This document shows positions 15,518 to 34,468 of a stretch of DNA of 64,000 nucleotides, piece after piece. Position numbers and translations under genes: made by a program. Location of the stretch: the NCBI GenBank assembly GCA_963802945.1, contig CAWDKY010000014.1, positions 1 through 64,000 on the forward strand, read 5' to 3'. The notes beneath the pieces are model-generated. The model was not told the origin of the DNA. It was given only the letters and a program-made list of their open reading frames with translations, and searched no databases. Numbering within the stretch: position 1 is the first letter of the stretch; every line of letters begins with the position of its first letter. The stretch is from an uncultured delta proteobacterium (GTDB lineage Bacteria; Desulfobacterota; RBG-13-43-22).

Positions 15518-15520
15518 TTC

Positions 15521-16249
15521 ATGAAAAGGAATTCGCTGATCATTACCCACAATACGACGGAAGGGGGAGGTCTTTTCGAAAAGATCTTAAAGGCCAAAGG
15601 TTGGCAACAGGAAATCCTGCCGCTTTATGCCGGAAAAGCATTGCCTGCTTCGGTAGAACCTTATGATCTGATTTTGATCATGGGCGGCCCTATGAGTGCC
15701 AATGACGAAGCCCGTTATCCATTTCTCAAAAAAGAACTCCCCTTTATCCGTCAGGTTTTAAAACTGGGAAAGCCTGTTTTGGGAATTTGTCTGGGGGCGC
15801 AATTGATGGCCAGATCCTTAGGGGCCAGGGTCTATCCCGGCCCTCATAAGGAGATCGGCTGGTATTTTCTGACCCAGACCCCTTCGGCCAGAACAGATCC
15901 CTTGTTTTCATTATTAGACCCCTGCTTCTTAGTCTTCCAATGGCACGGGGAAACATTCGATCTTCCTAACGGAGCGATTGGTCTGGCCGGCAACGAGGCC
16001 TACCCTCAGCAGGCCTTTCGTTTTGAGGATTGGGCCTATGGACTTCAATTTCACTTTGAGGTGACTGAGTCCATGATACAAACATGGCTGACCCAATGGG
16101 CTAAAGAGATAAAAAAAGCCAAGCCGCAGCCCCTGACTGCCCAAGATATCCTTCAAGACAGTCAGGTATATCTGGACCGGCTTCATAAACAGGTCTGGCT
16201 TTTTTTCGGACGTTATCTTGATTTTGTCGAAAAGGGGAAATTTTTATAA
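15521..16249 (+). CDS. Class I glutamine amidotransferase-like protein
   Basis: MGGPMS, GICLGAQL (nucleophile Cys), QWHGETF, QFHFE. Confidence 0.9.
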   Translation: MKRNSLIITHNTTEGGGLFEKILKAKGWQQEILPLYAGKALPASVEPYDLILIMGGPMSANDEARYPFLKKELPFIRQVLKLGKPVLGICLGAQLMARSLGARVYPGPHKEIGWYFLTQTPSARTDPLFSLLDPCFLVFQWHGETFDLPNGAIGLAGNEAYPQQAFRFEDWAYGLQFHFEVTESMIQTWLTQWAKEIKKAKPQPLTAQDILQDSQVYLDRLHKQVWLFFGRYLDFVEKGKFL

Positions 16250-16367
16250 TTCCGTTTTTGTAAAATATTTTTTTTAAAAAATAACAATTTTGTAATTTGA
16301 CGGATGACATCAATGTTCTTTTTTATACAACCGTTTAATTCCATTGCAAAAATAAATTTTAATCCCA

Positions 16368-16385
16368 ATGGTATATCAATTGCAT
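16368..16385 (+). promoter_or_regulatory. sigma54 promoter of glnB-glnD-glnA with box ACAATTTTGT at 16284
   Basis: TGGTATATCAATTGCA: GG 16370-71, GC 16382-83; weaker second box CCGTTTTTGT at 16252. Confidence 0.7.
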
Positions 16386-16449
16386 TAATTAGTATTAGCG
16401 TTTGTATAAGAATATGAGATAATGGCAGGAAATGAATGGGCAAAAATAA

Positions 16450-16809
<360 letters not shown>

Positions 16810-16817
16810 AAAACCGG

Positions 16818-16910
16818 TACTGGATACTCGATACTGGATGCTGGATAAATACCAGCGTAATCCGTTCCCAGTATCGTCTTTAGCTTTTATCCACTATCCA
16901 GCATCGAATA
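16818..16910. repeat. Inverted heptamer-repeat element (CTGGATA-type / TATCCAG-type)
   Basis: TACTGGATACTCGATACTGGATGCTGGATA ... TATCCACTATCCAGCATCGA. Confidence 0.75.
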
Positions 16911-16924
16911 ACCATTAACAACCA

Positions 16925-19525
16925 ATGACCGAACCTCTGCACAAAAAATATCTGCTCGACCAGCGTCAAAAGCTGAAGGAGCAGCATGATCATGATCAGG
17001 GAGAATCGGGCTTGACCATTGCCCACCGGCATGCCTCCTTCATCGATGTCTTTATTATTTCCGTTTTCAACAGCCTGGAGGTAAGGGCCCTTCTTGGCTT
17101 GGAGGGGGAAGACCCATCATTTGTAGTCGTGGGGCTGGGAGGATACGGACGAAAAGAACTATCCCCTTTTTCGGATATTGATCTGCTTTTTCTTTATCCT
17201 GAAAAAAATGACCTTCAGGTTGAAGAGGCCATCCGCAAGGTCCTCTATCCCCTCTGGGATGTAGGCTATGATCTGGGGTACACGGTTCAATCCATGGGGG
17301 ATTGCCTGGAAATGGCCCGAACAGAACCTCAATTTTTAACCGCTCTGCTTGATGCCAGACGAATAACCGGAAGCCCGGTCCTGGCCCAGTCTCTTAAAGA
17401 TCAAATAGGAAAACTTTTAAAGGAAGGGCAGGAGCTGCTTTGGCAGGATTGGATCCTGAAGGAAAGAGAGCAACGACATCTTCGTTATGGCGATTCGGCT
17501 TTTTTTCTGGAACCGCATTTAAAAGAAGGATTGGGCGGGCTTCGGGATATTCATTGCCTCCTGTGGATCGGAAAGGCCCTTTTTGAGGCCCCGGACTTCC
17601 GAGCTTTGGAAAAGGCTGGCCTTCTCTCCGCGGAGGATCGGGACACTTTAATTCATTCCGAAAAATATTTGCTTCGGATACGAAATCAACTCCATTACCT
17701 GGCCGGCAGGAAAACAGATCAGCTCTCTTTTGAATTTCAGGAGGCCATGGCCGAATGGGCCGGAATCAAAAAACAAGGAGATATCCTTCCGGTCGAGGTC
17801 TTCATGCGGGAGGTCTATAAGCACCTTCAACAAGTTCAGACCATCCATCAAAACTTTTTTGAAAGAATGGCCGAACAAAGGGAAACGGGGGAAAAGCACC
17901 GAGAAATTCTTGAACCGGGTATCTATCTTGAAGGAGGAAGGATTTATCTCGAATCGGCCCAGGTGATTCAGGATAATCCTCCTGTTCTGATGAAACTTTT
18001 TTGGTATGCCCTGAAGAAAGAAACCGTTCTCGGCCAGGAAACCATTCGATTGATTAAGCAAAACCTTTCCCTGATTGATGAGGCCTTTCAGAATTCCCGG
18101 CCGGTCAGTGAGCTTTTTTTGGAAATCATTAAAGACCTAAAAACCCCGCGGGAATTATTGGAAACCATGCTCCAAACCGGAGTGCTGACCCGCTATATTC
18201 CTGAATTTGAGGCCACGGTCTGCCGAACCCAATTCGATACCTACCATGTTTATACGGTGGATATCCATCTGCTCCTGACTCTGGTGGAATTGAAAAAGAT
18301 CGGTCGCGGATACTATCTGAAAGAAGAACCCTTGTTGTTCGGCATCTGGGGAGAGATTGAGGATTTTTCGGTCCTTTACCTGGCCAGTTTATTTCACGAC
18401 CTGGGCAAAGGTCAGGGGAATAATCATGCCCAACAAGGGGCCCTGATGATACCCAGGATTGCCGAGAGACTCAAGCTGCCCCTCCAGACTTCGAAAACGA
18501 TTTCCTATCTGGTGAAGAACCATCTCCTGTTGGTTGAGACGGCCCTTCGCCGGGACTTGAATGATGAAGAATTGATCATCCGCTGTGCCCGAACGATCCA
18601 GGAAACAGCAACCCTGAAAATGCTCTACCTGATCAGCTATGCTGATGCCCTGGCCACCAGTGCCCGAGCCTGGAATAATTGGAAATCCCTGCTGCTCAAG
18701 GAGTTATTTTTTAAGATACTCCATATCCTGGAAAAAGGAGAATGGGCCTCGGAATCAGCCCTGGAGGCCATAGAAACCTCCCAAAGGCAGGTTGTGGAAC
18801 TGCTGGAAAAGGAAATATCCAGCAAGGAAGTTAAAAATTTTTTAGAAGGAATGCCTTCTTCTTATCTGCTGTCTTTGCCTGCGGAGTCTATAGCCGAGCA
18901 TTTGCGATTACTACGCCAGATGGATGGAAAGCCCTTTCTCTGGACTGTAGAAAAAAAGGAAGATATCTATGAAATTTTTATTTGCTGTCATGATCGGCCG
19001 GGTTTGTTTTCCAGGCTCACCGGCGTATTGTCTTTAAACAACATCAATATCCTCGGGGCCCAGATTTTTACCCGCCCGGATAAAATAGCCCTGGATATTT
19101 TCCAGGTTAACCCGCCTTTGGATCCTTTATTTGCGGAAGAAACCTGGGAAAGGGTATATGATCAATTGACCAAGGCGGTTTCGGGTAAACTGTCTTTGGA
19201 TTATCGGCTGGCCAAAAAAAAATCCGGCCTGATGCTTTCTGCTGGACCGAGAATTGTAGCCGAAAGTCGAGTCATTATCGATAACCACGGCTCGGATTTT
19301 TGTTCTATCGTCGAGATTTACACCCAAGATCGTTTGGGCCTGCTTTACGCCATCACCAAAACCCTATCAGTGATGGAACTCAATATCTCTTTTGCCAAGA
19401 TTTCAACCAAAGTCGATCAGGTGGTGGATGTTTTTTATGTGACCGACCTGGAAGGGCAGAAAATTTTTGACGAGGAAAGGCTGGAAGAAATCAAGAAGGC
19501 GATTCTTTTCGCATTAACAGAATAG
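16925..19525 (+). CDS. glnD: [Protein-PII] uridylyltransferase / uridylyl-removing enzyme
   Basis: GLGGYGRKELSPFSDIDL, LEPHLKEGLGGLRD, YHVYTVDIH, FHDLGKG, two C-terminal ACT domains (DRPGL, DRLGLL). Confidence 0.97.
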   Translation: MTEPLHKKYLLDQRQKLKEQHDHDQGESGLTIAHRHASFIDVFIISVFNSLEVRALLGLEGEDPSFVVVGLGGYGRKELSPFSDIDLLFLYPEKNDLQVEEAIRKVLYPLWDVGYDLGYTVQSMGDCLEMARTEPQFLTALLDARRITGSPVLAQSLKDQIGKLLKEGQELLWQDWILKEREQRHLRYGDSAFFLEPHLKEGLGGLRDIHCLLWIGKALFEAPDFRALEKAGLLSAEDRDTLIHSEKYLLRIRNQLHYLAGRKTDQLSFEFQEAMAEWAGIKKQGDILPVEVFMREVYKHLQQVQTIHQNFFERMAEQRETGEKHREILEPGIYLEGGRIYLESAQVIQDNPPVLMKLFWYALKKETVLGQETIRLIKQNLSLIDEAFQNSRPVSELFLEIIKDLKTPRELLETMLQTGVLTRYIPEFEATVCRTQFDTYHVYTVDIHLLLTLVELKKIGRGYYLKEEPLLFGIWGEIEDFSVLYLASLFHDLGKGQGNNHAQQGALMIPRIAERLKLPLQTSKTISYLVKNHLLLVETALRRDLNDEELIIRCARTIQETATLKMLYLISYADALATSARAWNNWKSLLLKELFFKILHILEKGEWASESALEAIETSQRQVVELLEKEISSKEVKNFLEGMPSSYLLSLPAESIAEHLRLLRQMDGKPFLWTVEKKEDIYEIFICCHDRPGLFSRLTGVLSLNNINILGAQIFTRPDKIALDIFQVNPPLDPLFAEETWERVYDQLTKAVSGKLSLDYRLAKKKSGLMLSAGPRIVAESRVIIDNHGSDFCSIVEIYTQDRLGLLYAITKTLSVMELNISFAKISTKVDQVVDVFYVTDLEGQKIFDEERLEEIKKAILFALTE

Positions 19526-19586
19526 AATTTTACAAAGGCAATTTATTTCTACAGGTTGCTGAAAAAAAACCAAGGAGGAAATTAAA

Positions 19587-20999
<1,413 letters not shown>

Positions 21000-21012
21000 A
21001 GCAAACAATAAA

Positions 21013-21105
21013 TAGGGTCAAGGAATCCAGGATTCGAGGATGCAAGGGTTTTATTTATTAAGCCTTTAACTTGAATCCGTGACCTCTTGACCCTATGAAT
21101 CCTAT
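21013..21105. repeat. Inverted heptamer-repeat element after glnA
   Basis: AGGGTCAAGGAATCCAGGATTCGAGGATGCAAGGG ... CTTGAATCCGTGACCTCTTGACCCTATGAATCCT. Confidence 0.7.
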
Positions 21106-21320
21106 GTTTTATGACTATGGCAAGAATTGAATAAACCTCTGCCGATCTTTTAACGATTGGTGAGTACGAAAACACCTTCGGCGTTCGGAGAACTAAATTT
21201 TCATATTTTTTGGGCCCCGCCCCAAGCAGGTAAGAGAACTTAGAACGAATCCAAAATAGTTAACCAATTTGCCAAAAAATTTTTTATAGAAATTCAGGCA
21301 AATTTTTTGTATAAAAAAGT

Positions 21321-21338
21321 TTGGCGATATTTTTGCAG
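21321..21338 (+). promoter_or_regulatory. sigma54 promoter of mvhD-metVF-glt operon
   Basis: TTGGCGATATTTTTGCA: GG 21323-24, GC 21335-36. Confidence 0.75.
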
Positions 21339-21440
21339 AAATAATCTTTAAGGTAGCCATCGACCAGACAATTCCGGAATTCTCTGAGTCATCTGCCCCT
21401 CGGGTTGTTTTTCCCGTGACTATGCAAAACCCATATAAGG

Positions 21441-21866
21441 ATGTCTATGAATAGTGAAACCTTGGAGTTAAATGTTGCCATCTTTTATTGTCAGCAGTTG
21501 GATCCCGATCATGATGGCAATCGACGGGTCATCGAAAAAGAATTAGGGACCCGGATCAAATTTTTCCCAATGCCCTGTAGCGGGCGGATAGAGCCGCTCC
21601 ATTTTTTAAGAGCCTTTGAATCAGGAGCAGATTTGGTTTATCTGATTACTTGCCCGGAGAAGGTTTGTCGTTATCAGCAGGGAAATGTGCGGGCCGGGAA
21701 AAGAATCACCTTTGCCCAAAAATTGATCAAAGAGATTGGATTGGATCCGGAACGATTGAAGCTGACCATGGCCCGTCCTCCTCTCCCTAAAAGGATTGAC
21801 CTTTTGACCCGAGAATTATTCTCGGAAGCTCCGGTAAAAGGGCACTCTCTGTTGGGAAGATTGTAG
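21441..21866 (+). CDS. mvhD: MvhD/FlpD-type [2Fe-2S] subunit (hydrogenase delta-like)
   Basis: FYC, MPCSGRI, AFESGAD, C-x4-CRYQQGN, IGLDPERL. Confidence 0.85.
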   Translation: MSMNSETLELNVAIFYCQQLDPDHDGNRRVIEKELGTRIKFFPMPCSGRIEPLHFLRAFESGADLVYLITCPEKVCRYQQGNVRAGKRITFAQKLIKEIGLDPERLKLTMARPPLPKRIDLLTRELFSEAPVKGHSLLGRL

Positions 21867-21959
21867 AAGAAAAGGATTCAAGGGTTCAAGTGAAAATATA
21901 AAAACCCTTAAACCCTGTTCATTAATTGGGGGGAGAACCTGAAAGAAAACAAATAATAA

Positions 21960-22128
21960 GGTAGGCTTTTGCAAAAGTCCAGTAGCGTCATTCCGGTCCC
22001 GCATCAAGTGCGGGATAGACTCCAGCCGGAATCCAGGAAGATGGTACTAGTTCCCGATTTTCGTTGGGACGGTTTCTGGACACCGGCTTTTGCCGGTGTG
22101 ACGAAATTTGAAAGATTTGCAAGAACCT
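21960..22128. repeat. Nested palindromic REP/MITE-like element
   Basis: Outer TTTGCAAAAGT...GATTTGCAAGA; inner GTCATTCCGG...CCGGAATCCA and CTGGACACCGGCTTTTGCCGGTGTGAC; hairpin TCCCGCATCAAGTGCGGGA. Confidence 0.7.
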
Positions 22129-22161
22129 CAAAAGAATAATCTTAATGGAGATTAACAACCA

Positions 22162-22830
22162 ATGATTACCGCCGAAAGAAAACCTTTAGATGAAATCATT
22201 GCCATGATTTCCCCTTTCAAAAAGGTGTTGATCGTGGGGTGTGCAAGCTGTGTGGCCGAGTGCGCTGCCGGCGGGGAAAAGGAAGTGGGACTTCTGGCCT
22301 CGGCCCTGCGGATGGATGCCCGGATGACCACTCGGGAAATGGAGACCAGAGAAATCACCCTGGAACGGCAATGCGTTTATGAATTTATCGATCAGTTGAC
22401 CGGACTAATCGATCAATACGATGCCGTGCTTTCCTTGGCCTGTGGGGCCGGGGTTCAGGCCGTGGCTGAAGTCTTTCCGAATAGTTCCATCCTTCCCGCT
22501 TTAAACACCTCTTTCCTGGGACAAACCAAGGAGGCCGGTCTCTGGCTGGAGAACTGCCGTGGTTGCGGCGACTGCCGCCTTCATTTATTTGCCGATATTT
22601 GCCCGGTCACCCGCTGTGCCAAACAGATCTTTAACGGGCCTTGCGGTGGTTCTCAGGAAGGTCAATGTGAAGTCAATCCCGATACCCCTTGTGCCTGGGA
22701 CCTGATTGTCCATCGGTTGGAAGAAAGGGGTCAACTGGATCTTCTGGAGGAGGTCTATGCCCCGGCCGACTGGTCAAAAAAACAAGGGGCCGGACCTCGA
22801 AAAATCATCAGGGAGGATCAACAGAATTGA
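22162..22830 (+). CDS. metV: Methylene-THF reductase Fe-S/Zn subunit MetV (MTHFR_C)
   Basis: MITAERKP, GCxxCxxxCxxGG, RQC, ACGAG, CRGCGDC, CPVTRCAK..NGPCGG..C..CAW. Confidence 0.9.
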   Translation: MITAERKPLDEIIAMISPFKKVLIVGCASCVAECAAGGEKEVGLLASALRMDARMTTREMETREITLERQCVYEFIDQLTGLIDQYDAVLSLACGAGVQAVAEVFPNSSILPALNTSFLGQTKEAGLWLENCRGCGDCRLHLFADICPVTRCAKQIFNGPCGGSQEGQCEVNPDTPCAWDLIVHRLEERGQLDLLEEVYAPADWSKKQGAGPRKIIREDQQN

Positions 22831-23754
22831 AAACAGAAAGCCAGCTTAAAAAAGTATTAACCGCTGGAGAGTTTGCGGTAACGGCCGAGTGTGGCCCTCC
22901 CAAAGGGGCCGATCCGGAGGTCATAGTTAAAAAAGGCCGCATCCTTAAAGGTTTTGTGGATAGTGTCAATGTCACCGACAATCAGACCGGCGTAGTCCGT
23001 CTTATCCAGCCTGGCGGCTTGTGCCCTGCTCCGTCAGGAAGGGCTCGATCCTGTGTTCCAAATGGTGGTCCGGGATCGAAACCGGATTGCCCTCCAATCC
23101 GACATCCTGGGGGCCTCGGCCCTGGGGATCCGGAATATCCTCTGTTTGAGCGGCGACCATCAATCCTTCGGCAATCAAACTCAGGCCCTGGGGGTCTTTG
23201 ATCTGGATTCGATCCAATTGATCCAAACAGTCCGACGGATGCGTGACCAGGCCCAAATCATCGGCGGCGAGGCCATCACCCGACCACCGGAACTTTTTAT
23301 TGGTGCGGCCGCCAATCCCTTTGCCGATCCATTTTTTTACCGGGTTATCCGGCTGGCCAAGAAGGTCAAAGCCGGTGTCGAATTTATCCAAACCCAGTGT
23401 ATTTACAATCTGGACCGGTTTAAAGACTGGATGACCCAGGTACAGGATCGGGGTCTCCATGAAAAGGTTTATATCCTGGGCGGGATTACGCCCTTGAAAT
23501 CAGCCAGGATGGCCGAGTACATGAAAAATAAGGTGGCCGGAATGGATATTCCCGAAGCCTTGATCCGGCGAATGAAAGCAGTCCCGGCCAAGGAACAAAG
23601 GCAGGAAGGGCTGAAAATCAGCCTGGAGACCATCCAGGCCCTTAAAGAAATGGAAGGGATCCACGGGATCCATATCATGTCCATTGAATGGGAAGAGGCG
23701 GTCCCCCAAATTGTGGAACAAGCCGGGCTGATGCCCAGACCAAGGGTTAGTTAG
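22827..23754 (+). CDS. metF: 5,10-methylene-THF reductase, frameshift near 23003
   Basis: TTG start overlapping the metV stop; VTAECGPPKG, VNVTDNQ, then RDRNRIALQSDILGA, LSGDH, VFDLDS, FIQTQ, GIHIM. Confidence 0.9.
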
Positions 23755-23828
23755 GAGTAATGAGTTCGGAGTTCAGAGGTTTAGGTTGTGACAAAATTTT
23801 ACTCCGAACACCTGAACTTCGAACCTTC
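23753..23828. repeat. Inverted heptamer-repeat element
   Basis: GAGTAATGAGTTCGGAGTTCAGAG ... ACTCCGAACACCTGAACTTCGAAC. Confidence 0.65.
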
Positions 23829-23859
23829 GATTTTGCATATTCTATTAAAGAGGTAAAGA

Positions 23860-25246
23860 ATGCCACCCAAATATCATATTCAAACCTCCACGGTGCCCAA
23901 TCGTTTTCCCACGGTTATCCGTTCCGGGGTCATTGCCTGGGAAGAGGGATGCCTTAAATGCCCCAAGTGCGTCAAGCGGGAATGTGTTTATGGGGTTTAT
24001 GACAAACGGAATCTCGATTCTCGTTTGATGTCCGATTCGCTGGACAGTTTATGCAAGGATTGTTTCCGCTGCGTACAGAATTGCCCGAACCGTCTGATCC
24101 ATAAGGCCTTGAATCCCGCTTATAAGAATCTGGGAGACAGTTACTGGACCCCGGAGATCATCTCCAAGCTCTGGTATCAGGCCGAAACCGGGCGTATCCC
24201 GGTTTCCGGTGCCGGATACGGAGGCCCTTTTTCCGGATCGGGGTTTGACGCCATGTGGACGGACATGTCCGAGATCGTTCGACCCACCCGGGATGGGATT
24301 CATGGCCGGGAGTATATCAGCACCCAGGTAGATCTGGGACGGAAACATCAGGCCCTGGAGTTTGATGCGCAGGGGAATCTTTTGTCTCCTGTTTTTCCTT
24401 CAGTGGAGATCCCTTTGCCGATCATCTTCGATATATTGCCCTGGTCTCCCCCTCGGGATCGCATCAATCACACCCTGCTTCGGGCAGCAAAAGAAATGGG
24501 GACCTTTACCATTATTGCCCAGGAAGATTGGCATCCGAGCCTGAACCGTTATTTAAATCATATCATGCTCTATCTGACCGGGGATCCTGAGCAGTTTGAA
24601 AAAGACATCCTCAAAAGACTCCGTTTGATCGAGATCCCTGACGGACCTGATGTACTGTAACAGGCAGCGATGGCTTAAAGAAATAAATCCTGAAGCCGTT
24701 ATTGCTGTTCGAATCCCCTTGAGCCCCCAGGCAGCGGAGCGGTCCATGGAACTCACCCGATCAGGCGTGGAAATCCTCCATTTTATGGCCGATGAATTCG
24801 GCCGGGAACAGGGGGAGGCTCCCATCTTTATTAAAGACCGGATCAAAGAGGTCCACTTGCATTTGGTTAAAAACGGCTTCCGGGATCAGGTTACCATCTT
24901 AGCCGGCGGCGGTGTGACCATGGCTGAAGACCTGGCCAAGCTGATCATTTGCGGGGCCGATGCCGTTACCGTGGATATCCCTCTTCTGGTGGCTTTGGAA
25001 TGTCGTGTTTGCCGACGTTGTGCTGAAGGCATTCCCTGTCCGGTGAATATTGCCCAGATCTATCCTCCCCGGGGAGAGGCCCGTATCAGGAATCTGATAG
25101 CCGGTTGGTACAACCAGCTTTTGGAAGTCATGGGGGCCATGGGCATGCGGGAGGCCCGGCGCCTGCGGGGTGAAATGGGCAGGGCCATGTTTTTTGAAGA
25201 TCTGGAAAGGGAGATTTTTCTCCCTTTGAGTAATAAAAGGAATTGA
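23860..25246 (+). CDS. Glutamate-synthase-related FMN-domain protein with N-terminal ferredoxin domain (degenerate active site); frameshift near 24658
   Basis: CLKCPKC and CKDCFRCVQNCP; FDAMWTDMSEIVRPTRDG; ILAGGG, GADAV, ALECRVCRRC..CP, EVMGAMG..RRLRGE. Removing one T at ~24658 fuses the two ORFs. Confidence 0.82.
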
Positions 25247-25249
25247 TCA

Positions 25250-26764
25250 ATGTCTGATGTTTCACAATTTATTCCCCCAGAGGTGAAGGCAGCGCCGACC
25301 CGCTTTCGCCACGCCTTGAGCAAGTTCCGTATTGTTATCGGAAAGGATTGTGACAATTGCGGCCTTTGTCTCAAGCTTTGCCCCTATGGGGTCTATCAAT
25401 CGGGGGCCAAACGTCCCAAAGTGGACAAGGATTATCTGTGCCGTGGTCCGGCCTGCCAAAAGAATGAATTTTTTTGTGTTTCCCGCTGTCCAAAGGAAGC
25501 CATCACCATGAATCCCAATCCCTCCTTTGAGGTGTTGGGGGATAAAAGGTGGACGGCCGATCTGCTGGCCGGCACCTGGTATATGGCCGAGACCGGCGAG
25601 ATCCCTCATGAAGGGCTTAATTATAAAACCGGTGATTCGAGAGGGGGTTTTGATAAACTCCGACTGGTCTTCCCTTTGAACAAAACCCTGGACTGCCCGG
25701 ATGAGGCAATTTCCCTGGCCTTGGCGCTTAACCGCACCGGGGACGGGCGTCCCGAGATAACCCTGCCGGTTCCATTTTATTTAGGGGGTATGTCTTTCGG
25801 GTCGGTGAGTATAGTCACCATGCTCTCCAGGGTGCAGGCTGCCAAGGCTTGGGGAACTTTCTGTTGCACCGGTGAGGGAGGATATCCGGATGACCTGATC
25901 CCTTATGATGATTATGTGATTACCCAGGTGGCCACCGGGTTGTTTGGAGTTCGTGAAGAGACCATCCAGCGGGTTCGGATCGTGGAGTTTAAATACGCCC
26001 AGGGGGCCAAACCAGGTTTGGGCGGCCATCTTCTGGGAGACAAGGTAACCCCTGAGGTGGCTCGTATGCGTGAGGCCGTAGTCGGGAGCTCCTTGTTTTC
26101 TCCCTTCCCCTTTCACAGTGTTTATTCAGTGGAGGATCATAAGAAGCATATCGACTGGATCAAAGAGATTAATCCCCGGGCTTTAGTTTCGGTAAAGGTT
26201 TCCACCCCGACTGATGTGGACATGGTAGCCGTGGGCAGCTATTTTGCCGGGGCCCATATCCTTCAACTGGATGGCAGTTACGGGGGGACCGGGGCTGCTC
26301 CCGATATCGCCAAAAAAAACATTGCCATGCCTATTGAGTATGCCATTCCGAAGGTTCATAAGTTTCTTAAAGATGAAGGGATCCGAGACCGGCTGACCTT
26401 GATTGCCAGCGGCGGGATCAGGACCGCTTATGACGCAGCCAAGATTATTGCTTTGGGTGCCGATGGCGTTTGTCTGGGCACAGCCGATTTAGTGGCCTTA
26501 GAGTGTCTTCGCTGCCATAACTGTGAATCGGGCCGAGGCTGTGCCCGGGGTATTGCCACAACTGATCCTGAATTAACCGAGCTTATCTCTCTGGATTGGG
26601 GAACCCAACGGATCATCAATCTCTACGGGGCCTGGATGAAACAACTGACTTCAATCTTAAAACGTCTGGGGCTGACAAAAGTCAGCGACCTGATGGGACG
26701 CTGGGATTGCCTGGCCCATTTGGATTATATGAAGGCTGAAGAGATAGAAGGAGAGTTGGAATAA
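25250..26764 (+). CDS. gltB: Glutamate synthase FMN-binding subunit with ferredoxin domain (archaeal-type split GOGAT)
   Basis: CDNCGLCLKLCP, GGMSFGS, CTGEGG, QVATGLFG, KYAQGAKPGLGGHL, DGSYGGTGAA, ASGGIR, CLRCHNC. Confidence 0.92.
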   Translation: MSDVSQFIPPEVKAAPTRFRHALSKFRIVIGKDCDNCGLCLKLCPYGVYQSGAKRPKVDKDYLCRGPACQKNEFFCVSRCPKEAITMNPNPSFEVLGDKRWTADLLAGTWYMAETGEIPHEGLNYKTGDSRGGFDKLRLVFPLNKTLDCPDEAISLALALNRTGDGRPEITLPVPFYLGGMSFGSVSIVTMLSRVQAAKAWGTFCCTGEGGYPDDLIPYDDYVITQVATGLFGVREETIQRVRIVEFKYAQGAKPGLGGHLLGDKVTPEVARMREAVVGSSLFSPFPFHSVYSVEDHKKHIDWIKEINPRALVSVKVSTPTDVDMVAVGSYFAGAHILQLDGSYGGTGAAPDIAKKNIAMPIEYAIPKVHKFLKDEGIRDRLTLIASGGIRTAYDAAKIIALGADGVCLGTADLVALECLRCHNCESGRGCARGIATTDPELTELISLDWGTQRIINLYGAWMKQLTSILKRLGLTKVSDLMGRWDCLAHLDYMKAEEIEGELE

Positions 26765-26772
26765 ATAAGAAA

Positions 26773-27077
26773 ACAGAATCCAGAATTCATGAGTCAGGAG
26801 TCAGAATAAAAACGGAATAAACCAAGATTGATAAGCTTGTAAAAAGTAGTCAAACCACATTTCGGTCATTCCGGGCTTGAGTCGTTCGGCTTCGCCGAAC
26901 TTTAAGCAAAGACTCCCTTTGGGAGTCGGCCGGAATCCAGGAAATTCCACCCTTCTGGACTCCGGCGCCTGCCCCGGACCTGATCCGGGGTTCGCCGGGG
27001 TGATGACTTTTTACGAATCCAACAGTCATGGAATCTTAAACTTCTTCTGAATTCTGAATTCTGGCTCCTGAATTCTA
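26773..27077. repeat. Composite nested repeat: heptamer arms around a REP/MITE-like core
   Basis: CAGAATCCAGAATTCATGAGTCAGGAGTCAGAAT ... TTCTGAATTCTGAATTCTGGCTCCTGAATTCT enclosing TTGTAAAAAGT...ACTTTTTACGA, GTCATTCCGGG...CCGGAATCCA and several hairpins. Confidence 0.78.
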
Positions 27078-27097
27078 AATTAAAAAAGGTTTTACTT

Positions 27098-29728
27098 ATG
27101 CATCAACAATCTATTGCCCAAGCTATCATCAATTCCCGTGCCCGGTTATTGGAAAAGGTCCATCGTTCCCTTCTCCTTCCCCGGCAGCCTGAGGCTGAAG
27201 AAGGGGGCTGCGGGGTTACCGGATTTGCCTGCAATATTCCGCTCAGCGGCCGCCATATCTTTGAACCTTCCGTTCAGATGCACAACCGCGGAAACGGGAA
27301 AGGTGGCGGCATCGCCGCAGTGGGTTTGGAGGCTGCAAAACTGGGCGTGGATCAGGCCACCCTGGAAACGGATTTTCTATTACAGATCGCCCTGCTGGAT
27401 CCAGCGGTGCTTCCCGAATTGGAATCTCGCTACATCCGTCCCCATTTTCAAATAGACCATGAGACCTTTGTCCCTACCGTCGGTGACTTTCGGGATGTCC
27501 CAGGTTTGGAAATGGAACCGCCTCAGGTCAAACGGTATTTCGTTCAGGTTAAGCCCGACGTCCTGTCCGCTTTTCAGCGAGAAAGGCATTTGGAAAAATT
27601 GTCTCCGGGAAAAGCGGCCGAAGAATTCGTTTATCAAAACACCTTTCAAATAAACCAAAATTATTACAGTTCCCTGGGTGAAAAAAAGGCCTTTGTCCTC
27701 TCCCACGGCCGGAACATGATGATTTTAAAAATCGTCGGCTATGCCGAACAGGTGGCCCAGTATTATCGCCTGGAAGACTTTAAGGCCCATGTCTGGATGG
27801 CCCACCAGCGCTATCCCACGAAAGGCCGGGTTTGGCATCCCGGGGGAGCCCATCCATTCAGCGGTCTGGACGAGGCCCTGGTCCATAACGGGGATTTTGC
27901 CAATTATTATTCGGTCAGTGAATATCTCTATCAGCGAAACGTGATCCCTCTGTTTTTGACCGATACGGAAGTCTCGATCCAGGTCTTCGATTTGCTAAAT
28001 CGGGTTTATGGCTACCCCTTGGAATACATCATTGAATCCCTGGCCCCGACCACGGAAATGGATTTTGATCAGCTCCCTTTGGACAAACAAAAGATCTACC
28101 GCCAGATCCAGGCTACCCAGATTCACGGCTCGCCTGACGGGCCCTGGTTTTTCATCATCGCCCGCAATATTACCGGACAACGGACCTATCAATTGATCGG
28201 CATCACCGATACGGCCATGCTCAGACCCCAGGTCTTTGCCCTGCAAAAAGGAGAGGTGGAGATCGGTCTGATCTGCTCTGAAAAACAGGCCATTGATGCC
28301 ACTCTGCAGTCTCTGGCCAAGGAAGATCCCAGGTTCGGCACCACGGCCGACCGCTATTGGAATGCCCGGGGAGGCAGTTATACCGACGGTGGGGCCTTTA
28401 TTTTTACGGTTAAGGAAACGGCAACCGATCAATGGCACCTCACCTGCCAGGATAAATTCGGCCGGGCCATCGATATCCCTGCGGACCGAACCCCTTTTGA
28501 TTTTCGAGTTGAATTAAAACCTGTGCCTTTGAAAGCGGGGATGGCCAAAAAGGTAAAGCAGAAATTGGAAGCCGAGGATATCGTCTCCCTGTTTTCTTCT
28601 CTGAAGAGTTCCATTGAACAATGGGATTACGCTCAGTTCAACGATTTTTTAAGTCACCTGGCGGTTCTGGCCAAAGAGGAAAAATTAACCGAAGGGGTCA
28701 TCGAGTTATTTACCCTGCTGCTGGATCGAAGGTACCCTACGGGAACCAAACGACGCCGCTCCATTTTGCAGATGGTCACCCAGGCCCTTGAAAACCTATT
28801 TAAAGAAGTCCCTTTTTTGAACGAGGCTAAAGGGAGGTCATTTCTTAAGATCGATTATGCCCATCGCATTTCCATTCGAGCCCCTGAAGCCGGAGAAAAA
28901 TTTCTGGTCATCAATGCCGGGCAGTTTCCCCCGGAAGGGGAGGACTGTGATGCCCGCCTGGTGGTCGAGGCTTACGAGCTGGGTTGGAAACGGTTTGTCG
29001 GCTATGGCTACCGGGGTCAACGATTTCTGGGTAATGGTCTTGGGCCGGAAACTAAAGGGGTTCGTATTGATGCTTACGGGAGCACCGGTGACTATTTGGC
29101 CTCGGGCATTGACGGCCTGGAGATTTTTGTGCATGGCAATGCCCAGGATCAACTGGGTCAGATCCTTAAAACCGGCAAGTTAGTGGTCCACGGCGATGTG
29201 GGTCAGACTTTCTTATATGGGGCCAAAGGCGGGGAGGTTTATGTCCTGGGCAATGCCGCCGGACGGCCTTTGATTAATGCCGTGGGCCGGCCCAAGGTGG
29301 TCATCAACGGCACGGCCCTGGATTTTCTGGCTGAATCCTTTATGGCCGGGGATCCCCATAACGGGGGAGGATTTGTCGTTGTCAACGGCCTGAACATTGA
29401 CTCGCAAGGGAACATTGTCCCCCAGGAAACACCGTATCCCGGCGCGAACCTCTTTTCCCTGGCCTCGGGCGGGGCCATTTATATCCGGGATCCCTATCAA
29501 AAGATCGTTCCCGAACAACTTAACGGTGGGGAGCTGGTTCCCTTCTCAGAGCAGGACTGGCAACTCATCCTGCCTTTCCTTCAAGAGAACGAACGCCTCT
29601 TCGGCATTTCCATTGAGGATCACCTTTTGACCGTCGACGGTCAAAGGCACACACCATCTGAGGTTTATCGCACCGTCCAGCCGGCCAAGCAGACGGTCCT
29701 GGCCGGCGGGCTGGATGAGTGGGAATAG
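27098..29728 (+). CDS. gltB: Glutamate synthase class II amidotransferase domain fused to C-terminal GXGXG beta-helix domain
   Basis: EEGGCGV, MHNRGNGKGGG, AHQRYPT, GAHPF, VHNGD, TDTE, DGPWF, LRP; C-terminal GDYLASG, VHGNAQD, GDVGQTFLYGAKGG, GNAAGR, FLAES, ASGGAIYIR. Confidence 0.92.
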   Translation: MHQQSIAQAIINSRARLLEKVHRSLLLPRQPEAEEGGCGVTGFACNIPLSGRHIFEPSVQMHNRGNGKGGGIAAVGLEAAKLGVDQATLETDFLLQIALLDPAVLPELESRYIRPHFQIDHETFVPTVGDFRDVPGLEMEPPQVKRYFVQVKPDVLSAFQRERHLEKLSPGKAAEEFVYQNTFQINQNYYSSLGEKKAFVLSHGRNMMILKIVGYAEQVAQYYRLEDFKAHVWMAHQRYPTKGRVWHPGGAHPFSGLDEALVHNGDFANYYSVSEYLYQRNVIPLFLTDTEVSIQVFDLLNRVYGYPLEYIIESLAPTTEMDFDQLPLDKQKIYRQIQATQIHGSPDGPWFFIIARNITGQRTYQLIGITDTAMLRPQVFALQKGEVEIGLICSEKQAIDATLQSLAKEDPRFGTTADRYWNARGGSYTDGGAFIFTVKETATDQWHLTCQDKFGRAIDIPADRTPFDFRVELKPVPLKAGMAKKVKQKLEAEDIVSLFSSLKSSIEQWDYAQFNDFLSHLAVLAKEEKLTEGVIELFTLLLDRRYPTGTKRRRSILQMVTQALENLFKEVPFLNEAKGRSFLKIDYAHRISIRAPEAGEKFLVINAGQFPPEGEDCDARLVVEAYELGWKRFVGYGYRGQRFLGNGLGPETKGVRIDAYGSTGDYLASGIDGLEIFVHGNAQDQLGQILKTGKLVVHGDVGQTFLYGAKGGEVYVLGNAAGRPLINAVGRPKVVINGTALDFLAESFMAGDPHNGGGFVVVNGLNIDSQGNIVPQETPYPGANLFSLASGGAIYIRDPYQKIVPEQLNGGELVPFSEQDWQLILPFLQENERLFGISIEDHLLTVDGQRHTPSEVYRTVQPAKQTVLAGGLDEWE

Positions 29729-29813
29729 AAAGCATACTTTTTTTATCCTTCCTCGTTGTTCCTCGTGCCTCTTCCCTCACCCCTCCCGCCTCGTGCCTTG
29801 TGCTTTTTTTCCC

Positions 29814-29850
29814 TTGACTTCCCCCCTTTTTCCACGTTTATCTTTAGCCG
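29814..29850 (+). repeat. Short copy of repeated promoter-like element
   Basis: CCCTTGACTTCCCCCCTTTTTCC...TTATCTTTAGC matches the copies at 31112, 42250 and 43578. Confidence 0.55.
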
Positions 29851-29954
29851 CTTCCAATTTTTCAATCAGTATGTTAAAATATCAAAAATATTTACCTTAA
29901 TAACTTGTTGAATATGAATTTCATAAAATTCTGGAAATCTGTGGGAGGTTTCAG

Positions 29955-30167
29955 ATGAAAAATAAAACTTTCACTGCTGTGCTCCATAAAGAAGATGAGT
30001 TGTAGGTTGCTGAATGCCCTGAAGTGGGCACGGTGAGTCAGGGGTATACGATTGAAGAAGCCATAGCCAATCTGAAGGGAGCAACTGAATTATATTTAGA
30101 AGAACTTCCTATTAAGGAATTCTCAAAGTCGCTTATGACCACTTTCGAGGTAGCAGTCAATGCCTAA
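29955..30167 (+). pseudogene. hicB: HicB-family antitoxin with internal amber stop (30003-05), followed by ~10-codon hicA remnant (MPKLTRLSG, from 30160)
   Basis: MKNKTFTAVLHKEDEL*VAECPEVGTVSQGYTIEEAIANLKGATELYLEE; RBS GGAGG. Not in the ORF track. Confidence 0.8.
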
Positions 30168-30283
30168 ACTCACCAGGCTTTCCGGTGTGGTTAATTTATA
30201 ATATTAATAAGTTAGAGAATTGGTCGTCAAATACAATCAGTAAAAGCCAATCTGGGGTGTAAAAAGATCAAAGAGGCAAAAAA

Positions 30284-30589
30284 ATGATTAAGAAAAACCG
30301 CATCGAACTTCCGAAAAAACGCTTAGAAAAATTTTGCAGGAATTATCATATCAGTAAACTCTCCCTCTTTGGTTCGGTCCTCCGAGATGATTTTAAGGCC
30401 TCGAGTGATATTGACCTTTTGGTGGAATTTGAAACAGGATTCAAAGTGGGTCTTCTTAAGATGGCCCGAATAGAAAATGAATTATCAGAGATCTTAGGCC
30501 GAAAAGTTGATTTGCGTACTCCTGGGGACCTGAGTCGATATTTCAGGGGGGAAGTGCTGGAAAGCGCAGAGGTAGCCTATGCGCAATGA
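30284..30589 (+). CDS. mntA: Minimal nucleotidyltransferase (MNT) antitoxin
   Basis: LFGSVLRDDF..SDIDLLVEF, LGRKVDL. Confidence 0.9.
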   Translation: MIKKNRIELPKKRLEKFCRNYHISKLSLFGSVLRDDFKASSDIDLLVEFETGFKVGLLKMARIENELSEILGRKVDLRTPGDLSRYFRGEVLESAEVAYAQ

Positions 30590-30920
30590 TGATTTGATCC
30601 GTCTGAGGCATATGTTGGATGCAGCCAGAGAGGCGGTGGACTTTGCCCGTAATAAAACAAAAGAAGATTTTGATAATGATCGAATGCCAATTCTTTCTAT
30701 CGTTAAATCCATTGAGATTATAGGTGAGGCGGCGTCAAGGGTCACGAAAGAAGGTCGCGACACGCAACCAGAAATACCATGGATGGATATCGTGGCCATG
30801 AGAAATAGATTAATACATGTTTATTTCGATATTGACGTTAATCGGGTCTGGGACACCATCACTGATGACCTCCCTCCCCTGATAACAGTTCTTGAAAAGA
30901 TCCTTAATTCTAAAACGTAA
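30579..30920 (+). CDS. hepT: HEPN (DUF86) RNase toxin
   Basis: EIIGEAA, IPW, MRNRLIHVY (RX4HXY); overlaps the MNT stop. Confidence 0.9.
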   Translation: MRNDDLIRLRHMLDAAREAVDFARNKTKEDFDNDRMPILSIVKSIEIIGEAASRVTKEGRDTQPEIPWMDIVAMRNRLIHVYFDIDVNRVWDTITDDLPPLITVLEKILNSKT

Positions 30921-31111
30921 TTTTGCGGGAGGACGTAAGAGGCAACATTGTTCATGTTTTTTCTCTAAGTTCCATTGATCTCTCTGTTTTGAGCCTTAAG
31001 TTTCTTTATTTTCGCCGAACTCCCCACCACGAATTATATTTTCTTAATTTTCCCTATAATCTATTGGCTATCATCTATGAACTGGTTTTTTTTGCCTCCG
31101 TCAAAAAACCC

Positions 31112-31302
31112 TTGACTTTCCCCCTTTTTCCCTTTATTTTCCTGGTATTATCTTTGGGCTTTTTTTAAAGTTTAAGTTTCTTTTTTTCGACGAACGACGA
31201 ACGTCTTTTCAAAAAAGTTTTTCTTTTTCTGGAGTTAACATTTCCTTGCTTTTGAAGTAAGTTATCCGGCCAAAAGACCGGTCGAAGTGATAGCTGAACA
31301 GA
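31112..31302 (+). repeat. ~200-nt repeated intergenic element with sigma70-like promoter (TTGACT-17-TATTTT)
   Basis: Colinear with 42250-42468 through TATTATCTTTGGGCTTT, CGAACGAC, CGGCCAA..CCGGT.GAA, GATAGCTGAACAGA. Confidence 0.8.
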
Positions 31303-31566
31303 CATTTCTTTTTTCGAACGTTTAAGAAATTATTTATTTGAGAAGTTTAGAAACTTGAGGTCGCAATTTGTGACCTCAAGTCCATCCAATTGGGACGGAA
31401 TCCGCTTTGACGGGACTGACATTTTAGCTGAGGGACGGGATACAGAAAGCAGAATGCAAAGAAAAAAGACCTGATAAACATATAAAAGGCACCTCGCGCA
31501 TACCAAGGAAAGAGGTTTCCTGGTATGTAAGGGAGAGAGAATCAATCAAACCCTAGGAGGTGCCTT

Positions 31567-32589
31567 ATGAATAGATTATACGCAGGAACGGATCTTCACA
31601 GCAACAACAATTTTCTTGGGATTATGGATGAGAAAGGGAAAAGGATTTTCAAGAAGCGACTTTCTAATGATCCTCGAGAGGTCTTGGATAGTCTTGAATC
31701 GTTTCAAGAAGAGATGATTGGGATTGTGGTGGAATCGACCTATAACTGGTACTGGCTGGTGGATGCCTTGATGGATGAGGGGTACGAGGTCCATTTGGCC
31801 AATCCCGCAGCCATTGAACAATATTCGGGATTAAAACATGCCGATGATAAGCACGATGCCTTTTGGTTGGCCGATATGTTGCGGTTGGGGATTTTACCGG
31901 AAGGATATATCTATCCCAAGGAGGATCGGCCTATCCGAGACCTGTTGAGAAAGAGGGGACATTTGGTCAGGCTCAGGACTTCGCTTATACTCAGCCTGCA
32001 GAACATAATCACCAGGAATTGCGGATTCAAGTTAGGAGGGAATCAGATCAAGAGACTCAAAGAAAATAAGGTTTCTCCCATCTTGGCCGGGCAGGAAGAC
32101 CTGGCGCTGAGTGGGAAGGTTAGCAAGGAGACGATTGACTTCCTGACTTATCAAATTAAACAAGTAGAGAACGTGGTCCAAAACAAGGTCGAATTGAAAG
32201 ATCAATACCAATACCTTCAGACCATTTGCGGCGTTGGTAAAATATTATCTTTAACGATCATGCTGGAAACCGGGCCTATCGAGCGGTTCAGCAAAGTCGG
32301 CCATTATACTTCCTACTGTCGTAAGGTGCCGAGTAAGTGGACCAGTAACCACAAAACCAAAGGGAAAGGTAATAAGAAAAACGGCAATAAATACCTGGCC
32401 TGGGCCTTCTCAGAAGCGGCTGAGCTGGCTCGCCGCTACGATAAACCGGCTAGGGCTTACTACAACAAGAAATCGGCCAAGACCAACTTCATGGTGGCCC
32501 ACACGGCCCTGGCTCATAAACTGGCCCGGGCGGCCTATTTCGTAATGAGGGATCAGGTGCCCTTTGATCCCGCAAAGGTCTTTGCCTAA
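31567..32589 (+). CDS. IS110-family transposase (DEDD RuvC-like)
   Basis: GTDLHS, VVES, KHADDKHDA, TICGVGKI, SKWTSN, GNKYLAWAFSEAA, ALAHKLAR. Confidence 0.95.
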   Translation: MNRLYAGTDLHSNNNFLGIMDEKGKRIFKKRLSNDPREVLDSLESFQEEMIGIVVESTYNWYWLVDALMDEGYEVHLANPAAIEQYSGLKHADDKHDAFWLADMLRLGILPEGYIYPKEDRPIRDLLRKRGHLVRLRTSLILSLQNIITRNCGFKLGGNQIKRLKENKVSPILAGQEDLALSGKVSKETIDFLTYQIKQVENVVQNKVELKDQYQYLQTICGVGKILSLTIMLETGPIERFSKVGHYTSYCRKVPSKWTSNHKTKGKGNKKNGNKYLAWAFSEAAELARRYDKPARAYYNKKSAKTNFMVAHTALAHKLARAAYFVMRDQVPFDPAKVFA

Positions 32590-34087: not shown

Positions 34088-34468
34088 TTGAAGAAGAACG
34101 CGCAATTAGAACATTTGGCAGTCAAACCATCCCCTATACATGGGAAGGGACTCTTTACTAGCGAAGACATTAGCCCTGGGAAACTCGTGTATGAGTCCGA
34201 CCGCTATACAATATTACGAAGACCTTTTTATGCCAGCATCCAAAGGTCTCCGACAGAACACCTGCTGGAAGAAATGCTGAGGTGGGAAAATCATTCTTGT
34301 GTGCCTAACACCGCATTGAACTTTGACGGTCCGTTTATCCGACTCACTTCTATCTCATCAATCATTGCTGGCAGTGAACTAGTCTGCGACTACCGGGATA
34401 CTGAGGATTCGATTCCGCTCCCGTTTAAATGTAATTGTGGGCATTGTCCAGGCATTATAATAAAATAA
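34088..34468 (+). CDS. SET-domain methyltransferase with post-SET Cys motif
   Basis: SPIHGKGLF, NHSCVPN, GSELVCDY, FKCNCGHC; TTG start 5 bp after the SBP gene. Confidence 0.88.
   Translation: MKKNAQLEHLAVKPSPIHGKGLFTSEDISPGKLVYESDRYTILRRPFYASIQRSPTEHLLEEMLRWENHSCVPNTALNFDGPFIRLTSISSIIAGSELVCDYRDTEDSIPLPFKCNCGHCPGIIIK

Follow-up and report, generated by a model that had tools for sequence, protein, structure and literature searches.

Conserved linkage of mvhD-metVF with glutamate synthase genes suggests an electron wire shared by one-carbon metabolism and nitrogen assimilation

Within a stretch of 64,000 nucleotides (the window, G000:C14:1-64000) from the genome of an uncultured delta proteobacterium of peat (4.37 Mb in 72 contigs, estimated 100% complete, 6.7% contamination), the glutamine synthetase gene glnA is followed by a sigma54-like site and then by mvhD, metV, metF, gltB', gltB and a gene for a fused glutamine amidotransferase/GXGXG protein (GAT-GXGXG), all on the + strand. 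MetF, MetV and MvhD are the gene trio of the Hdr-linked MetFV type of methylene-tetrahydrofolate reductase (MTHFR; tetrahydrofolate, THF), here encoded together with a split glutamate synthase (GOGAT), and this arrangement suggests an electron wire common to one-carbon metabolism and nitrogen assimilation. New relative to the literature we found, as far as sequences can tell, are the conserved mvhD-metVF/GOGAT union, the GltB' subunit and an MvhD with a putative non-HdrA partner. Tentatively, and at a little short of an even chance, we read the gene products as one Fe-S-wired complex in which methyl-THF oxidation would feed GOGAT; methyl-THF as the donor, a MetV-MvhD contact and the direction of electron flow are the parts that we infer.

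19587..20999, + strand: glnA, type I glutamine synthetase (Pfam Gln-synt_C, 434.8 bits; TIGR00653, 657.5 bits against a cut-off of 429)
21441..21866, + strand: mvhD (FlpD family), small [2Fe-2S] electron-transfer protein (PF02662, 76.9 bits)
22162..22830, + strand: metV, small Fe-S subunit of MTHFR, DUF5981 (PF12225, 120.9 bits)
22827..23754, + strand: metF, catalytic subunit of MTHFR (PF02219, 113 bits), with a TTG start that overlaps the metV stop
23860..25246, + strand: gltB', degenerate paralogue of the GOGAT flavin mononucleotide (FMN) subunit, in two open reading frames (ORFs), 23860-24660 and 24650-25246
25250..26764, + strand: gltB, catalytic subunit of the synthase (FMN/Fe-S; PF01645, 296.6 bits), with 2x[4Fe-4S] at the N-terminus
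27098..29728, + strand: fused class-II glutamine amidotransferase/linker/GXGXG protein of 876 aa (PF01493, 49.9 bits; GATase_6, 25.2 bits)

All genes that a preliminary description of this DNA had named after glnA are thus present and co-oriented, with two revisions: the first glt gene, which it had taken for the amidotransferase, is a degenerate paralogue of the FMN subunit, and the amidotransferase is fused to the GXGXG domain in the third gene. Its statement that gltD and hdrABC are missing agrees with our scan of 56 window ORFs (13 + 43), among which neither the GltD-type nor the Hdr family was found. With no GltD encoded beside gltB in the window, the gene set does not belong to the NAD(P)H-dependent GltBD class; the FrhB/FdhB-type F420-binding family, the feature of F420H2-dependent GOGAT (FGltS), was likewise not found in the scanned ORFs.

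Conservation of the gene neighbourhood

The N-terminal gltB' ORF, searched in 401 genomes of the phylum, gave matches in 207 at E <= 1e-3, about 115 of those listed being strong, and 594 gltB' stretches were confirmed among species-representative genomes, mostly from Desulfobacterota that come from peat, sediment and groundwater. Up to 10 kb of flanking sequence in either direction was mapped in 40 of the phylum genomes, around the best 80 of the 594 stretches and around 20 weaker matches. The first two sources, after removal of 7 duplicates, yielded 113 distinct loci, 98 of them with at least 2.7 kb of sequence upstream of gltB'. An mvhD gene lies upstream of gltB' in 95 of these 98, and their gene orders are as follows.

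mvhD-metV-metF-gltB': 63 of 98 loci
mvhD-metV-gltB': 10 of 98 loci
mvhD-?-metF-gltB': 3 of 98 loci
mvhD-gltB', with metV and/or metF placed after the GOGAT genes: 7 of 98 loci
mvhD-gltB' only, with no metV or metF on either side: 8 of 98 loci
mvhD-gltB', with neither upstream and too little downstream sequence to judge: 4 of 98 loci
none of mvhD, metV and metF: 3 of 98 loci

The GOGAT part of the row is close to constant: of 106 loci 105 have gltB behind gltB', and of 93 loci 92 have the GAT-GXGXG gene next. Nitrogen genes are present in 54 of the 113. Uniqueness of the linkage to this genome is ruled out. Its conservation is borne out by the full order in 63 of 98 loci and by its occurrence, with several different gene orders, in at least 14 family codes of the phylum and under records assigned to other phyla. 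By record title the carriers are mainly Syntrophales, Syntrophorhabdales, Desulfomonilaceae, Desulfobacca, Desulfatiglandales, Desulfobacterales and Desulfarculaceae, with a few labelled Thermodesulfovibrionia, Dissulfurispiraceae, Pirellulales, Latescibacterota and Desantisbacteria. The 20 weaker matches, outside the tally of 98, comprised three superclusters headed by hdrL and six loci without mvhD.

A 442-aa type I glutamine synthetase is encoded directly upstream of mvhD in many relatives, giving a GS-MvhD-GOGAT row (GS, glutamine synthetase); it has 36-41% identity to the GlnA of the window (L038-L042, L057-L063, L071, L205, L214-L218 and others). The type of glnA that precedes mvhD differs between genomes of the window's own genus.

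The glutamate synthase core, GltB' and the predicted MvhD contact

As judged from sequence, no glutamate synthase other than that of this locus can be recognised in the cell; it is of the archaeal type, split into three proteins (GltB, GltB' and GAT-GXGXG) and dependent on glutamine. No other substantial PF01645 gene was found in the genome, estimated to be 100% complete, and no PF00208 glutamate dehydrogenase. Two stand-alone GltD-like genes do occur in the genome, both beside PyrK-like genes in an Nfn/Sud type of context, and a distal GltD, which the preliminary description had considered, is therefore an unlikely donor.

The catalytic motifs of the core look competent. GltB keeps GGMSFGS, AQGAKPGxGG, DGxYGGTGA and a four-Cys motif, the features of an FMN-binding synthase. 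The GAT-GXGXG protein is highly conserved (66% mean column identity), and its class-II amidotransferase motifs are complete, with EGGC38GV, HQRYPT, HNGDF and TDTE invariant in 30 of 30 aligned sequences; we take these to be the nucleophile, glutamine-binding and oxyanion motifs of the class. The Pfam GATase_6 match of this protein (25.2 bits) lies under the cut-off of 27, and its GXGXG domain (residues 642-809) scores 49.9 bits against a cut-off of 32.5 and matches FwdC in the PDB. The nucleophile Cys38 follows a propeptide of about 37 aa, presumably about as long as that of Azospirillum GltB, for which the deposited chain lengths of 1515 and 1479 differ by 36.

In archaeal-type GOGATs, such as that of Methanocaldococcus jannaschii, the amidotransferase, the FMN/Fe-S subunit and the GXGXG domain are separate proteins. 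The enzyme of the window is similar in being split, in the N-terminal 2x[4Fe-4S] domain of its FMN subunit, in having no GltD and, by its motifs, in depending on glutamine; it differs in the fusion of amidotransferase and GXGXG domains within 876 aa, in the additional GltB' and in the linked MvhD and MetVF. The barrels of both GltB and GltB' match the FMN domain of bacterial NADPH- and ferredoxin-dependent GOGATs (1ea0, 6s6s, 1ofd, 7mfm), from which the enzyme is set apart by its split form, by a four-Cys rather than three-Cys barrel motif and by the absence of GltD and of a distinct central domain.

The same three domain types next to a folate enzyme would also fit an anaerobic N-methylglutamate-type methylamine route, which the preliminary description had named as its alternative and in which the Glt-like trio would act as an MgsABC-like synthase feeding methylene-THF. 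In known systems MgsABC consists of three Glt-like subunits without redox Fe-S input and is linked to gmaS and mgdABCD. In the row described here both TIM-barrel subunits carry 2x[4Fe-4S] and a further four-Cys motif and a [2Fe-2S] protein is linked, equipment that would be needless for a net non-redox transfer and hence counts against such a route. The amidotransferase moreover keeps all its glutamine-hydrolysis motifs, and linked GlnA-like genes pass the type I glutamine synthetase cut-off with 509.7 and 523.1 bits (TIGR00653, cut-off 429). The setting is one of amtB, glnB, glnD and glnA, with the locus as the only GOGAT candidate. No Mgs-named NCBIfam model matched at the locus, and sarcosine-oxidase-like mgd genes were not seen in the mapped loci, where no family-level mgd search was made. 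An identity as N-methylglutamate synthase was rejected on the Fe-S domains, MvhD, the full glutamine-hydrolysis motifs, type I GlnA and the ammonium-assimilation regulon, and the route as a whole is barely credible.

In our reading GltB' is a GOGAT subunit with Fe-S clusters but no catalytic role, its sequence having kept three Cys clusters. The Fe-S chain of the enzyme is unusually long. It retains two CxxCxxCxxxC motifs, a phosphate-binding SGG...GAD stretch and a barrel CxxCxxCx5C motif, and it has lost GGMSFGS, TGEGG, QVATG, GGTGA and a 44-residue block that contains AQGAKPGxGG; this 44-aa deletion and the lost substrate and FMN motifs point to a non-catalytic paralogue. Fold and complex models were made with intact orthologues from G138, a genome of the same genus, rather than with the broken window genes. 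The GltB' model is a TIM barrel (mean pLDDT, the predicted local distance difference test, of 78.8) whose fold is matched best by large subunits of glutamate synthase and next by FMN-dependent hydroxy-acid oxidases, and the GltB' profile matches residues 974-1161 of Azospirillum glutamate synthase. A weak match to PF04898, the GltS central domain, is seen at GltB', and PF04898 appears in the precomputed lists of many relatives; on these weak matches GltB' may stand in for that central domain. In two loci of other families GltB' and GltB are fused, into proteins of 974 aa (L072:7474-10398) and 1052 aa (L073:7369-10527); more open frames, each around 1000 aa long, occur among the gltB' matches listed. 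Family members go under the names 'ferredoxin', 'hypothetical protein' or 'glutamate synthase-related protein' in public sources, and no NCBIfam model matches GltB' at 1e-10; under our reading this large and variously annotated family would be defined as a non-catalytic Fe-S subunit of GOGAT.

Residues 116-148 of GltB' (...MWTDMSEIVRPTRDGIHG...) are invariant, were modelled with pLDDT <50 and may form an interface or docking segment. This segment (window about 24205-24303; GAGYGG...MWTDMSEIVRPTRDGIHGREY) is the most conserved stretch of the family, and GltB lacks a counterpart.

MvhD, with four Cys invariant in 30 of 30 aligned homologues, is predicted to dock on GltB' by way of the cluster region. 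A two-chain model of G138 GltB' with MvhD, folded from alignments of our own, reached an ipSAE (an interface score based on predicted aligned errors) of 0.73 (runs 0.70, 0.75 and 0.73), against 0.00 for the best of three controls. Among solved complexes 58 of 80 attain that mark, and among mismatched pairs 2 of 110. The partner had a pLDDT of 78 or higher, and the runs agreed in no fewer than 95% of contacts. The interface is predicted to involve, on GltB', residues 23-29, 52-62 and 81-90 of the ferredoxin domain together with 384-392 of the barrel Cys loop and, on MvhD, residues adjoining Cys17, Cys46 and Cys76. An independent observation agrees with this contact: an upstream mvhD and the barrel CxxCxxCx5C of GltB' occur together in 115 loci and are both missing in 8, with 3 exceptions, two of which lie at contig ends. 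The 8 loci look like one lineage and their joint loss may be a single event.

In the lineage L074-L076, L200 and L208-L211 the barrel motif reads ...ARLYEEPEK..., and neither mvhD nor metVF stands beside the GOGAT genes.

In known complexes MvhD plugs hydrogenase, formate dehydrogenase or MetFV into HdrA, and we know of no HdrA-free MvhD complex. The models here would give MvhD a partner other than HdrA. The GltB'-MvhD model may, however, lean on the solved MvhD-HdrA complex, since the GltB' ferredoxin domain weakly matches HdrA 581-634 (5odc). The precedent of known complexes and this possible bias of the model both weigh against a wire of the kind that we propose.

These observations bear on whether the row encodes two separate enzymes that are merely co-regulated, an MvhD-MetVF working with a distal Hdr and a ferredoxin-dependent GOGAT, their adjacency coming from regulation or descent. 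Where a survey treats metFV-mvhD genes (PMC6085437), they are often not co-localised with hdrABC and a distal Hdr is assumed. The metF-gltB' gap of 93-230 nt in the window's own family, a point against close coupling, and the repeat elements between several operon genes here would also suit separate enzymes. Across 64 loci, though, the distance from the metF stop to the gltB' start has a median of 17.5 nt and is at most 30 nt in 40, with some pairs overlapping, and the neighbourhood has been kept across several gene orders and at least two MetF lineages. Adjacency from regulation or descent sits no better with mvhD staying by gltB' in the 8 loci that have neither metV nor metF on either side, with the predicted MvhD-GltB' interface at the cluster loops or with mvhD and the GltB' Cys motif having disappeared together. 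We regard two separate enzymes as very unlikely.

Descent of the MTHFR genes and the electron donor

In the complex that we favour, MvhD would be the electron entry of GOGAT, docking on GltB', and a dedicated, co-transcribed MetV-MetF methylene-THF reductase would form the other end of the Fe-S wire. Electrons would pass from the MetF flavin to the MetV clusters, MvhD, the GltB' clusters, the GltB clusters and finally the GltB FMN, for a net reaction of methyl-THF + glutamine + 2-oxoglutarate -> methylene-THF + 2 glutamate, and the operon would be switched on under nitrogen limitation via its sigma54 promoter. The methylene/methyl-THF couple lies at about -200 mV and that of 2-oxoglutarate + NH4+/glutamate at about -120 to -140 mV; by these potentials a methyl-THF-fed GOGAT reaction is exergonic, and glutamine hydrolysis adds driving force. 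For the chain of carriers, which the preliminary description had sketched in similar form, gene order, the predicted MvhD-GltB' interface (obtained from the kind of complex prediction that it had suggested) and the joint loss speak in favour, and methyl-THF as the donor stays conjectural.

The MetF of the window is of acetogen type. Other metF copies fetched from these genomes stand mostly in hdrL/hdrA-mvhD-metV-metF clusters, and a survey of the window's own genome for a separate metVF, as the preliminary description had proposed, found such a cluster on another contig (C17, G000:C17:30624-37332, L006), where hdrL-mvhD-metV-metF has an intact metF. Its HdrL is a 1478-aa HdrA/GltD-like protein that carries a GltD-like NAD(P)H module. 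Between the window and C17 copies MetF has 62% and 58% identity in its two frames and MetV 50%. Since HdrL elsewhere heads mvhD-metV-metF, the GOGAT genes of the window operon occupy the place of HdrL. The mvhD gene of C17 is interrupted by in-frame TGA codons, possibly for selenocysteine.

Two described systems come close on the MTHFR side. The mvhD-metV-metF trio resembles the MetFV-HdrABC-MvhD enzyme of the Moorella thermoacetica type, as outlined in the survey PMC6085437; unlike it, the operon here has GOGAT genes and neither hdrABC nor hdrL, a separate hdrL cluster being present on C17. HdrL, an HdrA fused to a GltD-like module, is described together with MvhD for Desulfobacterium autotrophicum, a member of the same phylum, in the account of the system in PMC2702500. 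That system likewise links Hdr-type proteins with glutamate-synthase-type modules, and hdrL-mvhD pairs stand beside metVF in the genomes studied here; it differs in that HdrL has the small-subunit (GltD) NAD(P)H module, whereas the window operon has large-subunit modules and no NAD(P)H site.

A tree of MetF (124 rows, quick search, LG+G4) placed the upstream-type GOGAT-linked copies in a group of 63 rows (62 GOGAT-linked, 1 from a truncated contig) that adjoins an Hdr-linked group of 30. Downstream-type copies fell inside a different, strongly supported Hdr-type lineage, and supercluster copies formed a third group. A single clade of all GOGAT-linked MetFs was rejected in a 72-row subsample (253.9 log-likelihood units worse; p = 3.6e-8 in the approximately unbiased test), a formal result weakened, at our reading's expense, by the naming of the groups after the first tree had been seen. 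The union of MetVF with this GOGAT, whether newly formed or retained, thus involves at least two MetF lineages and several gene orders, which favours a functional tie over chance adjacency. Acetyl-CoA synthase (PF03598) was found in G000 and in 36 of the 41 genomes searched, so methyl-THF would be a central intermediate in most carriers; its occurrence is the same whatever the operon type and does not discriminate between readings.

Several further observations weigh against methyl-THF as the donor, and most of them would suit a different arrangement, in which MvhD, MetV, GltB' and GltB are a shared Fe-S wire with an external donor, either ferredoxin acting through the ferredoxin-like domains or HdrL/HdrA acting through MvhD, and in which MetF and GltB are both sinks. 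The loci were picked by GltB' similarity, and the counts derived from them are biased to relatives and not independent. Loci with mvhD but without metVF, 8 of 98 with neither metV nor metF on either side and 4 more that could not be judged downstream, mean that MetVF is not obligatory and that another donor must exist there; 3 of the 98 lack mvhD as well. In G243 (99% complete) the GOGAT-linked metF is the only MTHFR match, so that the linked enzyme must also run reductively in that organism. Superclusters of the form hdrL-mvhD-metV-(mvhD)-metF-(mvhD)-gltB' in five loci (L069, L070, L202, L204 and L213), together with hdrL nearby in 9 of the 113, fit an HdrL-fed hub as well. HdrA-like genes were many in 5 of 5 carrier genomes checked and could act in trans; in the window's own genome HdrL/HdrA-like genes are present elsewhere and none lies in the window. 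The GltD-like NAD(P)H module of HdrL would provide an entry for external electrons. Finally, acetogen MetVF is reported to draw its electrons from reduced ferredoxin (PMC8515935, PMC8760232), and ferredoxin could then feed both flavins.

An external donor, the strongest competitor of our reading, is nevertheless somewhat unlikely in our judgement. No hdrL lies nearby in 104 of the 113 loci, the HdrL of the window's genome has its own mvhD-metV-metF on C17, and two sinks kept in one operon and re-joined independently are left unexplained unless they exchange electrons or share a dedicated donor. A distinctly unlikely extension would treat MTHFR and GOGAT as the two high-potential arms of a modular Fe-S machine for which MvhD is the universal plug, with bifurcation by HdrL in the superclusters and direct reduction of GOGAT by methyl-THF in the HdrL-free form, to which the window operon belongs. 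In the superclusters HdrL would then split electrons from NAD(P)H, sending one portion downhill to methylene-THF or 2-iminoglutarate and the other uphill to ferredoxin. If this were true, nitrogen assimilation would itself conserve energy by flavin-based electron bifurcation, and GOGAT would join the terminal partners of Hdr/MvhD-type electron routing.

Glutamate synthases are known to be fed by NAD(P)H or ferredoxin; a further donor, F420H2, has been suggested on the basis of gene context. If a GOGAT is wired to MTHFR, as in the complex that we favour, it would represent a new and seemingly widespread class of electron input, with a bearing on the donor of GltD-less 'archaeal-type' GOGATs in anaerobes and on the acceptors that could receive the electrons of methyl-THF (-200 mV) where the Wood-Ljungdahl pathway operates in the oxidative direction. 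For annotation it would mean that a metF beside gltB is not automatically a Wood-Ljungdahl MTHFR. The nearest conceptual precedent is the pair of putative F420H2-dependent glutamate synthases of methanogens, FGltS(I) and FGltS(II), which PMC3448663 likewise deduces from gene context. These too combine an archaeal-type GOGAT core with a dedicated electron-input subunit that is neither GltD nor free ferredoxin, the input being an FrhB/FdhB-like F420H2 dehydrogenase in FGltS and MvhD with MetVF here. In the full-text literature, with subscription journals and supplements outside its scope, no paper was found on mvhD or metVF linked to glutamate synthase large-subunit genes.

Frame breaks, spacers and surroundings

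Both metF and gltB' are broken in this assembly, a further point against a working complex in this strain. In metF one extra base near 23003 shifts the frame, the first frame running to ...VVRL before the next takes over, and in gltB' a break of net +1 lies at 24657-24662. We consider assembly error the probable cause. Apart from the single break in each, the two genes are free of stops and well conserved. In relatives gltB' is uninterrupted, at about 460-512 aa; that of G138 has 462 aa and 98% identity. The sequencing runs listed included no RNA run, and those of DNA had shares of at most 0.20. Contigs from peat-metagenome runs, which derive from relatives and not from the source strain, have the intact metF site in 4 of 4 runs and the intact gltB' site in 3 of 4, the fourth having no contig across it. 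Three more frame breaks in two unrelated window genes, together with many splits of this same locus in sister assemblies, form a pattern that points to assembly error.

Decay of the operon in this strain, with metF and gltB' as true pseudogenes by a net +1 frameshift each, would be compatible with any of the readings above. When the window is aligned to the G138 region (94-96% nucleotide identity over about 15 kb), the two breaks are the sole coding-sequence indels, and neither lies in a long homopolymer; mobile repeats occupy three operon spacers, and an IS110 transposase lies 1.8 kb downstream. Yet loss of GOGAT would be costly, as neither a second substantial PF01645 gene nor a PF00208 glutamate dehydrogenase was found in the genome as a substitute. 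Set against the intact relatives and the other breaks in the window, decay seems rather unlikely.

At window 48099-49462 the parts of an NtrC-type sigma54 activator (receiver; AAA; lid + HTH_8) fall in three different frames, and at 50306-51486 a hybrid histidine kinase occupies two.

The promoter-like site and the spacers of the operon are as follows.

20997..21111: imperfect inverted repeat (42 nt) immediately behind the glnA stop, part of a multi-copy element with about 19 related genome copies
21322..21337, + strand: sigma54-type -24/-12 promoter-like site, TGGCGATATTTTTGCA (TGGCGA-N5-TTGCA), 104 nt before the mvhD ATG
21867..22161: mvhD-metV spacer with a short repeat element of up to 37 genome copies
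26765..27097: gltB-GAT spacer, a MITE-like (miniature inverted-repeat transposable element) insertion flanked by 39-nt inverted repeats whose ends have 16 and 11 genome copies

The sigma54 promoter that the preliminary description had placed before mvhD is plausible: the -24/-12 match is present, and statistically it is not strong by itself, the loose pattern TGGYRN6TTGCW having 3 matches in the window against 0.93 expected and 3 being reached in 8 of 100 shuffles. All three matches lie upstream of + strand genes, one of them at 16369-16384 before glnB. Of 100 loci, 12 have a similar site ahead of mvhD, and 4 of these belong to relatives within the genus. A separate promoter before gltB', which would uncouple it from metF, gained no support. 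A promoter and terminator scan turned up neither a convincing sigma70 promoter ahead of 23860 nor a terminator within the operon, with counts near the shuffle expectation that make it weak evidence in either direction; the short gaps of the 64 loci speak for one unit, and the wider gap of the window's own family leaves room for a promoter. Scanning 20900-30400 with Rfam at E <= 1 gave one chance-level match only, and THF, S-adenosylmethionine and glutamine riboswitches were not found.

Multi-copy elements thus stand in three spacers, with up to 19 genome copies between glnA and mvhD, up to 37 between mvhD and metV and up to 16 between gltB and GAT-GXGXG; the 105-nt metF-gltB' spacer is unique sequence in the genome. 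The mvhD-metV spacer measures about 100 nt in relatives. Contigs of relatives skip 26764-27114, the MITE-like insert being missing there. An element of about 50 nt (window 21986-22036), with ~37 genome copies, is present also in many unrelated peat contigs, and many such contigs end at 21986 and 22035.

Upstream of the operon lies an unusually big one-strand nitrogen cluster (window 9918-20999, + strand), which ends with glnA and contains the following.

9918-15517, + strand: three tandem amtB-glnB(K) pairs
15521-16249, + strand: class-I glutamine amidotransferase
16468-16809, + strand: glnB
16925-19525, + strand: glnD

Directly downstream of the operon an MNT-HEPN toxin-antitoxin pair (nucleotidyltransferase/HepT-like) is encoded together with the IS110-family transposase (window 30284-32589), and a 252-nt segment at about 29936-30187 recurs on two other contigs with about 95% identity. 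Elsewhere in the window, a small SET-domain protein is encoded within an ABC-transporter gene row (34088-34468), and a PP2C phosphatase is joined to a Ser/Thr protein kinase in a single ORF (6942-8744).

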